A DNA stretch of 64,000 bases from Eledone cirrhosa (taxonomy: Eukaryota). The notes under the pieces were generated by a model that saw only the letters and a program-made list of their open reading frames with translations, ran no database searches and had not been told where the DNA came from. The position numbers and the translations under genes were made by a program. Location of the stretch: NCBI GenBank assembly GCA_964016885.1, contig OZ024742.1, positions 85,684,001-85,748,000 of the forward strand, given 5' to 3'. Within the stretch, counting starts at the first letter, position 1. The number at the start of each line of letters is the position of its first letter. This document shows, in pieces, positions 1 to 64,000 of this stretch.

Positions 1-684
1 GCGCCATCCCCTAATGTAGCAAACATGACAGCAATAATGTATTGTGGGTCTAAACGCTTTTTTTGTTTGTAGGCACTTCATATCACCACGATGCCGAATG
101 TTGTCCATTTTCAAGAGAATCCTTACTACGTACATTTGAAATCTTATTTGAACAGTCATACTGCAATTTATGTGGGAGGGAACATTTCCGCTTTTAATAG
201 GAAGAGTTTAAAGTCATGCATGAAGTATTCTACGATCCTAGCATCAAACATTCATAGTTACTGTATGGATTTTCAGCACCATCCTCGTAGCTCTAAAACT
301 TCTCTCTCGAAGAGGTACGTTTTACAGATTTAGAGCCTTAGATATGGATCTACAGAAATCTGGTTTAGAATATATGGTAAGTAATAATTTCAGCATTTAG
401 TGTTTATAAATTGTAGATATTAATGTTTCAGATTTGTGAGAGAGTTTTTGTCTCTGCTGATGCAATTATGAATTTAGAACTTTACTACTCTTATCTGCAA
501 ATCGTCTCAATAATGTTCTGTTTCGTCTTTTTGTATTGTTTAGAATATTTGTATATGGTATATATCATATTTAGTATCAAATTGTAATATATATAAATGT
601 ATCTATATATATATATATGTATTAGAAAGTGAGGTTTTTTTTACAAATTGAAAAATAACCGAGGTGTCCTACACGAGTGAAAAT

Positions 685-942
685 ATAAAGAAAAAGTGAT
701 GAAATCGAAAATGCAACTGGAGTCTTATTTTTTTTTTAAATATATATATTTATTTGGTTCCTTTACTGGTTTCGCAGTTCTTCTGCTTTTCAAAAGGTGA
801 GTTGAGATGGAGAGTCTGTAGTTTTTCTCACATCTGAAAAGCAGAAGAACTGCGAAACCGGTAAAGGAACCAAATAAATATATATATTTTAAAAAAAAAT
901 AAGACTCCAGTTGCATTTTCGATTTCATCTCTTTTTCTTTAT
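685..942. repeat. ~108-bp inverted repeat (685-792 / 835-942) carrying an HHR motif in each arm
   Basis: Arms are near-perfect reverse complements (e.g. gatgaaatcgaaaatgcaactggagtctt / aagactccagttgcattttcgatttcatc) with a 42-nt spacer. Confidence 0.9.
760..797 (-). ncRNA. Minimal type I hammerhead ribozyme with U3-A8 core
   Basis: Minus strand reads CCTT TTGAAAA GCAG AAGAA CTGC GAAA CCAG TA AAGG: stem I CCTT/AAGG, stem II GCAG/CTGC, GAAA, GUA cleavage triplet. The plus-strand arm has the palindromic CCGG stem III loop. Confidence 0.7.
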
Positions 943-959
943 TGACCATATATGGAATT

Positions 960-1053
960 ACCCCTTGAGAAGATCGGCTATTTAAATACCAGGATAAATT
1001 TTCATTTAGTCCAGAATTAGCCGTCGAAACGGCTGGAGCTCAGCCGTCGGGGT
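960..1053 (+). ncRNA. Type I hammerhead ribozyme with full stem III and U3-A8 core
   Basis: ACCCC TTGAGAA GA(T)CGGCTA...TAGCCGTC GAAA CGGCTG GAGCT CAGCCG TC GGGGT: three helices close correctly around the core, GUC cleavage site. Confidence 0.8.
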
Positions 1054-1151
1054 CTTACTGGTTCCTATTACCTACTCTACTACCCCAAGTATTGAGTACT
1101 TTGGTGCGTTATGGTCCACCTGGTTCCTTACCACATTTCCTTCGTTTTCTT

Positions 1152-60084: not shown

Positions 60085-61830
60085 ATCATTGGCATATGTC
60101 GGCCTAGAAGGACTATGGTTAATGCATGGGGTATTTTGTTTCAGTTGCTGATGGCGGTGCACACATGAGTTGCAGTCCTGTATACAGTGACTGCTTTTGT
60201 AGATGCTCTCCTACGGTGCAACAATGCTGTTCTTTTTTCGAGCAGGATTTGCCTGAGAGGCAAGTGTTTGTTACTCCTCCCCTCTTTCCATCCCTATGCG
60301 CAATACTCGTCTTCATTTCAGGCAATCATTAATGACCCCTCCCATCTCTGGGTATCCTCCTGCTGACAACTTTGAAACGAAGATTAGGTAGTCTTCGTGC
60401 TTTTGTCCCGCTGGCAATTTCCCCATACTGTAAGTCTTTTGGAATCCTCCTGTTCGTCATACAATGTAAGTGACCGAAACAGCGCAAACGACGCTGTTTG
60501 AGCAGGGTGTATATGATGGGAATATTTACGCGGTTTAGAACATAATTGTTGTTAATCCAGTCGACCCACTTGATACAAAATGTGTCTCAGTTTACGAATG
60601 CGGAAGATATCAAGACGCATCACCTGTCTGGAGTATAGCCGTAAATAGTGTGCTGAGGACACAATACTTGTAGACAACTATCTTGATGTTTGTAGTTAGT
60701 TTTCTGTTCTCGCAGACTCTCTTTTTCAGCCCCACAAATGTCGACGTTTTCATCCAACTCTCCTGCTGATCTCGGGTTCCACTGAGAGGTTTTCTGTGAG
60801 TGCGGAGTCAAGTTAGATGAATTCGTGGCCCACCACTTATTATTAGTTATTGATAGTGTTCGTTGAGGGTTATTTGACATTTTAGCCCAATATATTGATT
60901 TTACTTCAGACGAATTGCCTGACTGAATTCCTGGCAAGGCCTCCAGAGTTTATTCATGAGGAGTTCAATTTGCTCCTCATTGTGCTCTGTCAATGATACA
61001 TCGACGGCATATAGCATTAAGCTGATGAGTACCACGCAAAACCTTTGAAATCATCTGACGGACAAGTAGACATGGTCCATATATTGCAACATCCATGTCT
61101 GAATAGCGATTTCTTACATTGTTTGTTTATTTGCTTGTTCATGGAATTTCTCTGTGTGGTGTTTACAGCCCAAGTTTGAGTATATTGAAATCCCTAAGTT
61201 CCACGCACCCAGTGGAGCTCTCGGGTTGTGACGGAATAGCAGAACTGACTGGGCTCTTCCTAGCTTGATGCCGTCTGTAGCTATCCAGTGAGGAACATTA
61301 GTCTCTCCCTCCATCTAAACAGCCGCCCGTGTGTTGCTCACATGCCAATCATATGCAGACTTATAACCGGTAGACTGCTCCTTTCCGTGTTTTGCCGATG
61401 TGGTGATATGCATGTATGGGCGTGTTTTATCGAAGATTGGCAGTTGCCCCTGCAACACATCTCCCCTCTCCGTGCAAATAGTGTGCTCAAAGGGATATGC
61501 AGAGGCCAGCACAAATAGGCTTCGGTGGAGCCGCAGTAGTTGCCAGAACGAGGATGGATGTAACATCCAGTAGTCTTAGGGAATTCGACTCAGGATTTAT
61601 ACTCGGGGTTTAATTCCGAAGCCTTGCCCATAAGTGGGTATAGCCGGAAGGCAACGGATGTTTAAGTTCTAAGATCACCTTCTCTTATAAGGACTTCTCT
61701 CCTAGGCTACCGAGTACCACCTACCCTGAGCATCGGTTTCAAGGCACCAGCATCCACCTACGAGACTTCTCGTGTCAGTAGTCCTCAAGTTAGGGACACT
61801 TGATCTGGAGGTAGGGTGTACAACATATAT
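60085..61830 (-). mobile_element. Internally deleted RTE (BovB-like) LINE
   Basis: FGHLHCMTNRRIPKDLQYGEIASG, C-terminal cysteine motif, LGAWN endonuclease start and an RTE-like 5' UTR. Confidence 0.7.
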
Positions 61831-62744
61831 CCAAATCAGCAAATTTGAGTGAGAATAAAAATAAAAAGAATATGAACAAATATAAAATGAATACAGCAAA
61901 TATTATTAAAAACTACAAATATCTGTAGATGATATCATATGGAAACAGTCAAAGTAAAATTATAAAATATGAAAGGAAATATCGAATTTTGATACCATAG
62001 TAATAGAACGGTATGAAATATTGATAACTCTATATCAATTTAGACGTAATGGTGCTAGATACGATGCTAATTATACTATGTCACAATATATTGGGCACAG
62101 ATTTTTAAATATATAAATTGTGTGTTAATATTAAGTAGCCAACATTTAATATGCTGTTGCCACATTGTCTTAGATATGGTTTAGAAGTTCAGAATTTAAG
62201 CAGACAACTGCATACCATAATGATAGTTATATATTAGCTGTGTCGCGTAGATGACGATGTACCACATGTAATAATTAATTGTATGTACGATATGTATCAG
62301 TTAATTGAAGATTTTTAAGCATGATTGGTGAAAATTGATTTAGGTAAGCTCCCAATGCGTTTATTGATTAATCCGATTGTACGATGTTCTTGTCTATAGA
62401 TTCCAATGAGCATTGCTGAGATGCAAACCCAACACATCTAGGGACTATAGACCAAGGCAACACACATTCAAATTCTTTCGTTTCAAAATGCCAACTTCAT
62501 AAAGCGGCAGACGTAAAGCAAATTCGCAATGAATGCACATTACACACATACATACACACACATATATATATATATGTATATATATATATATATATATATA
62601 TATACATATATATATATATATATATATATATATATATATATATATATATATATATATATATATATATATATATATATATATATATATATATATATATGTG
62701 TGTGTGTGTGTGTGTGTGTGTATGTGTGTGAGGGGGGGGGTCAT

Positions 62745-63160
62745 TTTGTCGTTAATTATAAGTTGTTATGTTGCTATTCCATTCATGTTTTCTATTTAAT
62801 TTTGGTTGGAGTTCATTTATGTTTCTTGCCTCTGTGATTTGTCTAAACATTGCGTCTTTTCTGTGTGTAGATTCTATTTGTGTATCTATGTTCTCTAATT
62901 TGCCCTTATGTTTTATTTTAGCATGTTGGTGGAGTACTGATGAGTCTTTTCTATCTATGTTCATTTAATCGTTCTCTAATGCTACGAGCTGTCTCACCTA
63001 TGTACATTATATTCTAATTGTTTCATTGTCCCTCCCTCAGTACATCTTATACTTTATACTATGTTTCTAGTTTTACAGCTAATATGGGGTCTTAGCTTAC
63101 AGATTATGCATTTCCTATCTATACAGGGAGATCTTTGAAAAGGGTATGTATTACTAATAA
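62745..63160 (-). mobile_element. Inverted Naiad-like PLE segment (Zn linker and GIY-YIG)
   Basis: PCIDRKCIICK..SCKTRNIV*SIRC..YIGETARSIRERLNEH..SVLHQHAKIKH..RQITEA..LNRKHEW. Confidence 0.85.
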
Positions 63161-64000
63161 AAACACAATGGAAAGCATCCAGCAAATAGGTAACTCCATC
63201 CAGCAGAGTATCAACGTTACTATAGACTACCCAAGCAAACACCCCAACCATCGATTCCCTGTACTCACACAGAGCTCTGGATATAAACTATTAATAACAA
63301 AAAACAAATCCTCCATTCCCATTATGCTAAACCCATGGCTTCCAAATATCTGATCCACCGAAACTCGACTGTTTCGGATCACATTGAAATCAACATACTG
63401 ATTGCGGATTTAGTAAGTGTGATGAGGAACGTGTCCCGCATGTACAACCGCATGCAGTTCTCTGGTTACGATCAGAGAGATAAAATCAGAGTATATAGAG
63501 GAGCCAGGACCAAATGGGAAAAAATAGTAAATAATGATGCAAATGGGACCTGCCCCTTGTATACGAGCCATTTTTGGAATAGAATAGAAAGAACTAGGAG
63601 TAAGGTTAAAAGATAAACTCACGGTATGATAGTAATAAATACCAGAGTGTAATATTCATCAATACAACCCCTAGAGGTGAACTAGCTTACAAATTTAGAA
63701 GAGCCCTGGATAAAATTAAAATAAATATTAAGATAGTGGAAAGACCAGGTACCTCCATAAAAACACGTATTAATATTACATACCCTTTTCAAAGACCTCC
63801 CTGTATAGATAGGAAATGCATAATTAGTAAGCTAAGCCCCCATATTAACTGCAAAACGAGAAACATAATATATAGCATAAGATGACACACACATAGGATG
63901 ACAACACACACAAAAACAAGATGGCGTAGTACAAAAAATAGGAGAGGCACAAAACATAGAAAAGAATCCCCAGTCACTGAAGAGGTCACAGAATATGTGA
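63155..64000 (+). mobile_element. Naiad-like PLE (RT C-terminus/thumb, linker), endonuclease deleted; HHR begins at 63977 and is cut by the window end
   Basis: TMESIQQIGNSI..DYPSKH, YAKPMASKYLI, RMQFSGY, CPLY, FINTTPRGELA, KIVERPG; CTGAAGA GGTCAC AGAATAT GTGA[..]. Confidence 0.8.

Follow-up and report, generated by a model that had tools for sequence, protein, structure and literature searches.

The 64,000-nucleotide stretch of the Eledone cirrhosa genome analyzed here (contig OZ024742.1 of assembly GCA_964016885.1, positions 85,684,001 to 85,748,000; hereafter the window) is AT-rich repeat DNA with a multi-copy short interspersed nuclear element (SINE) and with Helitron and L1/Tx1-type relics. 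It holds 69 (TA)≥5 tracts (57 after merging), many short elements bearing type-I hammerhead ribozymes (HHRs), and seven coding relics of Penelope-like elements (PLEs). We propose that the HHR elements running into (TA)n are insertion products of PLE enzymes, which join a reverse transcriptase (RT) to a GIY-YIG endonuclease (EN), mainly Hydra and Neptune-like, acting at pre-existing (TA)n; we put the probability of this reading at roughly three in four. The short elements, lettered where they are discussed below, are these (cleavage sites are predicted):

619..942, inverted arms: element A, arms 685-792 and 835-942; U3:A8 type-I HHR core 793 (-), cleavage 764; left arm exceeds the right by about 66 nt and adjoins (TA)7 at 604-618; right arm breaks off within the core and is fused directly to B
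943..1151, + strand: element B, core 965, cleavage 1048; the type-I U3:A8 HHR is complete and its stem III stable; 3′ end adjoins (TA)n 1152-1317
1318..1487, - strand: D′, HHR-free 3′ end belonging to family D (about 75% identity), 5′-truncated, between two TA tracts and tail-to-tail with B
1554..2583, - strand: element C, 538-bp tandem of 1.8 units (98.6% identity), a complete HHR per unit (1803, 2341); inverted 75-bp piece 2509-2583; ends at (TA)21(GA)12 and (TA)27; non-coding, structured, retrozyme-like
2637..2880, + strand: element E, degenerate HHR 2714, short inverted arms 2638-2683 and 2830-2876; left end adjoins (TA)27
3041..3274, inverted arms: family F copy 1, HHR relic 3118 (+); the arm with the short end meets (TA)14, the one with the long end (CA)n(TA)6
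6920..7085, + strand: HHR relic 6960, weak and identified by eye; its T-rich end meets (TA)24
17320..17522, + strand: element H, U4C type-I HHR core 17365, cleavage 17462; end at (TA)9
31100..31244, + strand: element I, HHR relic 31147 (G8A); ends at (TA)29, on whose far side the Neptune-like element lies tail-to-tail
33983..34257, inverted arms: family F copy 2, relic HHR 34170 (+) with short end at (TA)18; other arm a deleted half (34092, -) with an end about 61 nt longer at (TA)12
44500..45533, + strand: element D, tandem of 688-bp period, 345 bp common to the units (91.6% identity); complete long-loop HHRs in both units (44552, 45240); end at (TA)7; non-coding, structured, retrozyme-like
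45549..45700, - strand: element K, HHR 45651 with complete core but weak fold, cleavage 45601; faces D tail-to-tail, one (TA)7 lying between them
45828..46481, - strand: tRNA-bearing tandem, 259-bp unit, 2.4 units (97-98% identity), plus an inverted 39-bp piece
46924..47070, - strand: element L, HHR 47026 (U3:G8), a microsatellite within loop II; (TA)6 lies 10 nt past the cleavage site

Hammerhead motifs exceed chance expectation

We scanned the whole window with an HHR descriptor that permits one core change, the U3:A8 covariant and a long loop II, using 15 block shuffles of the window as the null. Ten type-I HHRs score at least 24, compared with 0.53 expected per shuffled window, with cores at 793-, 965+, 1803-, 2341-, 17365+, 31147+, 44552+, 45240+, 45651- and 47026-. 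A stricter first scan was concordant (seven matches at its score of at least 15; 0.1 expected); at a descriptor score of at least 20 there are 14 matches with 3.3 expected, and values below about 22 fall in the noise range. The motifs are thus type-I HHRs in the sense of a core with stems I to III above chance, and their cleavage is a prediction from sequence. The minimum-energy structure of 965+ is the active three-way junction; in the others the active fold lies 1-6.5 kcal/mol above the minimum-energy structure. Stem III is palindromic in most, as in dimer-type HHRs, and the U3:A8 covariant is among the variants reported for PLE HHRs (Cervera 2014). Rfam gave no HHR match anywhere in the window at E≤1 and none in two focused stretches at E≤10, nor did it find another ribozyme in the window, its matches being microsatellite-driven miRNA models and two tRNAs; the HHR calls therefore rest on our own descriptor. 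The Rfam miss is probably due to long loops and variant cores.

The initial annotation had placed HHRs or their relics at 17 positions. Eight are intact or one-change cores, all scoring at least 24: 760 (real core 793-, U3:A8), 960 (965+, U3:A8), 1727 (1803-), 2265 (2341-), 17359 (17365+, U4C), 44548 (44552+), 45236 (45240+) and 45596 (45651-). Five are degenerate and draw their support from context or homology: 2710 (2714+; A9 lost, outside the top 40 of the scan), 3119 (score 21.1), 31371 (31400-; score 18.6, stem I weak), 34170 (a homolog of 3119) and 58085 (core about 58118-, A6U, by eye). Two proved to be truncated halves; at 834 an inverted arm is cut within the core and its C is supplied by the flank, and at 34086 (34092-) an internal deletion takes out GAAA and stem III. 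Position 41854 is not an HHR, lacking GAAA and stem I, the relic of that element being 42012+, and at 63977 the window stops inside stem II of a possible core. The scan added 47026- (28.4), 31147+ (24.2), 42012+ (21.6) and a weak 6960+ that had been overlooked.

Two further observations concern decayed sequence. A homologous pair at 27148-27201 (+) and 51637-51691 (-) ends in an HHR-like core (27193, 51645) without GAAA or stem III; pyrimidine-rich sequence follows both copies, which probably represent a decayed family. HHRs 17365 and 31147 are each immediately preceded by a long T/pyrimidine-rich low-complexity stretch (16810-17330 and 30780-31100), which may be a decayed 3′ untranslated region (UTR).

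HHR elements end at (TA)n tracts

With tandem copies collapsed, the top-scoring HHRs represent eight independent events, for which distances were taken from the cleavage site. All eight have (TA)≥5 at 10-202 bp downstream, where the background within 210 bp is 15.6%, and none of 20,000 permutations reached eight under a uniform or a local null. The SINE 3′ ends behave differently, with 3 of 13 near (TA)≥5 (Fisher P=0.001 versus the HHR events). The docking is also one-sided, the upstream (TA)≥5 being more distant in every event (154-10357 bp; Wilcoxon P=0.008). Among weaker HHR relics called by eye, 6 of 9 lie within 210 bp of (TA)≥5, by approximate coordinates. Independent copies share end points, in family D at 45533 and about 1320 and in family F at four ends.

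These data bear on three statements of the initial annotation. Its seven quoted element/(TA)n junctions are all (TA)n boundaries, to within 1-2 bp. Its description of the 3′ ends as pyrimidine-rich holds on average (mean 0.66, n=13, versus 0.51 for 74 other flanks; P=2e-4), with two ends at 0.48 and by-eye relics included in the sample. Its inferred targeting of (TA)n is supported as strand-specific docking at (TA)≥5, in excess of SINE controls, and is weaker at (TA)≥8, where HHR elements and SINEs do not differ significantly. At 619, 3041 and 34257, a common short motif ending TTTCTAAT adjoins TA in element A and both F copies and is possibly an RT start signal.

Junctions carry a PLE integration signature

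In element A, both F copies and the tRNA-bearing tandem, inverted arms are joined at their truncated 5′ ends and the two 3′ ends differ in length by 56-66 nt. Published PLE insertions combine partial tandems, truncated copies in inverted orientation and a tail of 30-40 bp (Craig 2021, PMC8557442), and the tail has been traced to two RT start sites (Frangieh 2024, PMC11167929). Of this pattern of partial tandem, inverted 5′-truncated copy and one-sided tail, the same four insertions show the tail, and their pairing of one short with one long end, being the PLE tail signature, supports PLE integration. Element C has the tandem and the inversion, with no tail offset.

None of the four internal tandem junctions carries (TA)≥5, yet TA adjoins 5′-truncated ends at 7137, 33842 and 1480; we therefore reject TA as a templated tail and favor pre-existing targets. 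Three tracts (1152, 31245 and 45534) are entered by 3′ ends from both sides. The cleavage site was likewise rejected as the element end, since the ends lie 10-200 nt further on, which fits uncleaved RNA as the template. At several junctions the element end and the repeat overlap by 1-5 nt; we do not adopt microhomology priming, as overlaps of this length seem hard to tell from chance. Miniature inverted-repeat transposable elements (MITEs) are disfavored as an explanation of the inverted arms, which meet at truncated 5′ ends and differ in length by the tail.

From these junctions we infer that Hydra and Neptune-like enzymes probably nick existing (TA)n and make these products. By analogy with known PLE biochemistry, the endonuclease would nick TA on one or both strands, and RT would initiate at one of two fixed internal sites, about 55-65 nt apart, downstream of the uncleaved HHR. 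Short complementary DNAs (cDNAs) extended from both nicks could then join head to head, giving the inverted arms that we observe, in which a short end is paired with a long one; alternatively, cDNA synthesis could run through multimeric RNA and yield the observed tandems. Insertion would split the tract and add a small duplication at most, and the TA left on each side might be reused repeatedly, which would account for the tail-to-tail pairs and the element/TA chain seen at 604-3320. The Poseidon protein provides a parallel in vitro, where it cuts and extends both strands at AT-rich DNA, has two internal RNA start sites and does not need HHR cleavage, initiating at a site not homologous to the target (Frangieh 2024, PMC11167929). 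The proposed mechanism would share with this protein, Poseidon PAc, the cutting and extension of both strands, AT-rich targets, a tail left by two RT starts and independence of HHR cleavage. Poseidon belongs to another clade, and here the mechanism is read from junctions that have offsets of 56-66 nt.

Coding relics of three PLE types

The window's PLE fragments were not recognized by Pfam, and we therefore built three profiles, based on 19, 26 and 55 selected homologous proteins. These located seven relics of three types (Hydra at four loci, Neptune-like at one, Nematis-like at two), bearing out the suggestion of the initial annotation that three PLE types supply candidate RT/EN partners:

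7135..7870, + strand: Hydra-type linker and EN relic, 7152-7672; 5′-truncated end joined to (TA)24, (TA)6 at 7871
15299..15722, + strand: Hydra-type EN relic with CxCX5C linker; no HHR seen; followed by a SINE
20290..20742, - strand: Nematis-like EN relic, match at 20353 (-); 3′ end enters a CA/TG tract, not TA
31303..33849, - strand: Neptune-like relic, RT and GIY-YIG 31896-33842; minimal HHR relic 31400; TA tracts at both ends
40275..44130, inverted arrangement: Hydra relic, RT on + (42305-43723), linker and EN on - (41467-40616); HHR relic 42012 (+) in a position like that of a pseudo-long terminal repeat (pLTR), upstream of RT
58053..58849, - strand: Hydra-type EN relic, EN 58381-58849, then degenerate HHR at about 58118; 3′ end at (TA)26
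62735..64000, inverted arrangement: Nematis-like PLE, match 62761-63963; 3′ end (-) enters (CA)n(TA)n 62562-62730

In translation, the Hydra PLE (40275-44130 plus fragments) has DKT, the CxCX5C linker, CxxC and CxH and no CCHH, with SWR as a variant at the place of the RWK motif. An HHR, albeit degenerate, occurs together with (TA)n at 58053, and TA at 7135; relics 7152 and 15299 and the minus arm at 40616 have no clear HHR. The Neptune-like and Nematis-like relics combine RT with a C-terminal GIY-YIG that has a cysteine pair and histidines; we take these two names from motifs, not from a tree with labeled references. For a full-length homolog (P0011), the Pfam RVT_1 and GIY-YIG matches are themselves below or near cut-off. 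Two relics have an HHR relic in their own 3′ region, the Neptune-like one (31400), where a 500-bp non-coding stretch precedes the HHR, and the Hydra one at 58118. In the Hydra relic at 40275-44500, the RT (+) and EN (-) arms do not overlap and each has degenerate, AC-rich microsatellite at its border; 44471 and 38935 are connected by a match of 37 bp, and twin priming or recombination between repeats are candidate origins of the inversion.

Several observations weigh against the proposed PLE insertion at (TA)n. All of the docking and junction evidence comes from filled sites in this one window, and the 210-bp distance cut was set after the data had been seen. At (TA)≥8 just four of the eight events remain docked (P=0.006 under the uniform null, 0.034 under the local null and, not significantly, 0.15 versus SINEs). 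Non-PLE elements meet TA too, namely a Helitron end (16 bp away) and both ends of one L1/Tx1-type fragment, and both Nematis-like copies (20290-20742, 62735-63155) end at CA/TG tracts, hinting at another target preference. Several HHRs fold no better than shuffles, none is recognized by Rfam, and the end offsets of 56-66 nt exceed the published tail. Finally, in the comparison of short-element 3′ ends with PLEs that the initial annotation suggested as a check, no short-element end among 300 pairs (25 ends) matches the 3′ UTR of a PLE coding relic. Matches were confined to families, apart from a modest one between element H (17365+) and 42012+ (29 nt around stem III, z 7.8) and one between E and the tRNA-bearing unit (z 5.7), which was not used because a pair that seems to match by chance reaches z 6.3. 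Apart from H, the short elements yielded no assignment to a PLE partner.

Retrozymes or truncated PLE ends

The single short pieces are probably, for the most part, heavily 5′-truncated PLE ends. By the tandem test for retrozymes, A, B, E, F, H, I, K and L are single or inverted, not tandem, and no coding relic rises above the reversed-sequence null within 15 short-element regions. C and D have a complete type-I HHR in both units, although they extend to 1.5-1.8 units only. The C and D monomers (538 and 688 nt) contain no PLE coding relic in any frame, the best score of at most 0.1 bits equaling the reversed null in a test that covered the three PLE profiles. They fold well beyond controls in three of four 400-nt halves (z -7.4/-3.3 and -2.4/-5.8, versus -0.6±1.2 in 30 control windows). 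Tandem HHRs, lack of a coding relic and strong folding make C and D retrozyme-like; their lengths lie outside the 150-450 bp retrozyme range but within the 1000-bp period limit given by Li 2026. Besides element D itself, the window contains a single partial copy of family D (D′). On this sequence evidence, the odds that C and D are non-autonomous, retrozyme-like RNAs copied in trans are about even.

The strongest competing explanation, which we rate a little short of even, is that all pieces, C and D included, are 5′-truncated or partly tandem copies (pLTRs) of autonomous PLEs with full copies elsewhere, and that independent retrozymes do not exist. In its favor, PLEs commonly show partial tandems and truncated copies in inverted orientation (Craig 2021), most genomic minimal HHRs are single and probably derive from truncated PLEs (Cervera 2014), C and D fall short of two units, and the Neptune-like relic shows that 500 bp of non-coding sequence can precede an HHR. 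It has to accommodate monomers that hold no PLE coding relic over 538 and 688 nt in any frame and are far more structured than the 30 control windows. It fits the proposed insertion mechanism and contests the retrozyme label only.

A tRNA-bearing tandem with PLE-type ends

The 259-bp tandem at 45828-46481, found at one locus in the window, carries a tRNA-like gene in its unit (Rfam 44 bits, above the gathering score), which ARAGORN reads as Ser-CGA, though its variable loop is short. A 20-bp stem formed by the flanks encloses the tRNA part, which a T5 run follows. The inverted 39-bp arm ends 56 nt beyond the short end, and each 3′ end is 1 bp from a TA tract. Descriptor scan and Rfam found no HHR in it, just a one-change core look-alike without supporting stems. 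Like tRNA-derived SINEs, the unit has a tRNA-like head; unlike them, it is arranged in tandem, has an inverted arm and meets TA with its two offset ends, and it has no tail of the long interspersed nuclear element (LINE) type. Candidate explanations are a tRNA element dependent on PLEs, a one-off host-transcript capture and a local rearrangement. A broader proposal, which we regard as possible though rather unlikely, is that cephalopod PLE enzymes mobilize a whole class of non-coding passengers in trans into (TA)n, both long structured retrozymes such as C and D and a tRNA-headed, ribozyme-free tandem that would be SINE-like but PLE-dependent, with the tRNA replacing the HHR as promoter or processing site.

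Tract expansion and passive association

Expansion of (TA)n tracts, which the initial annotation had raised, is not borne out by tract length, as HHR-linked tracts are not longer than the others (median 32.5 versus 23 bp, 12 versus 45 tracts, P=0.48). We consider it improbable that the elements make or lengthen (TA)n, through telomerase-like RT slippage at short AU/UA overlaps or through repeated duplications, and so feed the microsatellite load. PLE RTs are sister to telomerase (Craig 2021, PMC8557442), 1-5 nt overlaps occur at several junctions, and 12 of the 57 tracts are HHR-linked; but 45 have no HHR-linked end, TA is found at 5′-truncated ends too, short overlaps are expected in AT-rich DNA, and initiation in vitro is at a site not homologous to the target (PMC11167929).

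Less probable still is a passive association, in which repair or template switching at the hairpins of fragile, dense TA tracts (69 in 64 kb) yields inverted and tandem structures from any element, for although Helitron and Tx1 ends also meet TA and a 74-bp inverted duplication without an HHR flanks a TA tract at 8183-8526, it is countered by the strong downstream-versus-upstream asymmetry of TA distance, the end points conserved across independent copies of families D and F, and the lack of enrichment of SINE ends at TA. That duplication (8183-8256 and 8453-8526, 98.6% identity) faces the tract from both sides, with no HHR seen nearby.

Other repeats in the window

The SINE is about 185 bp long, with 13 window copies that have intact 3′ ends, three head-to-tail copies at 19545-20102 and an inverted pair in 10694-11357. 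The Helitron relic (22385-26560; Pfam Helitron_like_N and PIF1) starts 16 bp from (TA)28. L1/Tx1-type LINE relics lie at 52430-57000 and 57400-57986, with 74% identity in their common part, the short one between two TA tracts. A mariner-like transposase relic at 4030-4640 was called by eye, and the fragments tried gave no Pfam match. Five telomere-like AGGGTT units lie at 27530-27561, inside an unclassified repeat.

Relation to known elements and implications

The pattern is real and is mostly a dense local case of published PLE behavior. The core claim, that HHR-bearing PLEs insert in (TA)n, octopus included, has already been published (Craig 2021, PMC8557442). That study reports a (TA)n preference for Hydra-1_Obim of Octopus bimaculoides, which also has an HHR, and for two octopus Naiads. 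The window's Hydra relics share with Hydra-clade PLEs the DKT, CxCX5C and CxxC/CxH motifs and the lack of CCHH; Hydra-clade PLEs also have an HHR close to the 3′ end and insert in (TA)n (PMC8557442), a pairing that the relic at 58053 shows with a degenerate HHR. By eye, their N-terminus and RT motif resemble those of the Hydra-1_Obim protein, although the window copies are decayed and do not appear to belong to that family; unlike the compact Hydra HHRs published, many HHRs here have loop-II insertions of up to 95 nt or U3:A8 cores. The other two types resemble Neptune and Nematis PLEs in the C-terminal GIY-YIG with its cysteine pair and in a Zn-finger-like linker. A microsatellite bias has been proposed for Neptune (Craig 2021, PMC8557442), whereas the Nematis-like type here ends at CA/TG tracts.

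Like metazoan non-LTR (non-long terminal repeat) retrozymes, C and D are non-coding tandem units, each with a type-I HHR and predicted to form structured RNA, and they co-occur with PLEs (Cervera and de la Pena 2020, PMC7229834; Li et al. 2026, 10.64898/2026.07.22.740005). They differ in having units of 538 and 688 bp, not 150-450 bp, and in comprising under two units; the PLE-type inverted arm and (TA)n docking are not among the features described in the texts available from those studies. The main text of Cervera 2020 (PMC7229834) mentions neither microsatellites nor octopus, and Bonar 2026 (PMC13282606), in the portions accessible, does not mention ribozymes. A search of the open-access literature found no report of octopus hammerheads beyond Craig 2021, of (TA)n targeting by retrozymes or of PLE-dependent tRNA SINEs.

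What is new here is the junction-level evidence, together with two modest extensions, the retrozyme-like tandems with PLE junctions and the candidate tRNA-bearing passenger. Such pieces are probably labeled 'unknown' or MITE in repeat annotations, and if the window is typical, on the order of 100,000 diverse hammerheads would be missed by Rfam models in such genomes. The tRNA tandem, if our interpretation of it is true, could show that PLEs have SINE-like passengers of their own. The enzyme that mobilizes animal retrozymes has so far been argued from co-occurrence and phylogeny, and the PLE integration signature on retrozyme-like tandems bears on which enzyme that is. The two-ended inverted mini-insertions, for their part, resemble what the mechanism described in vitro, with its two strands and two start sites, would produce in vivo.

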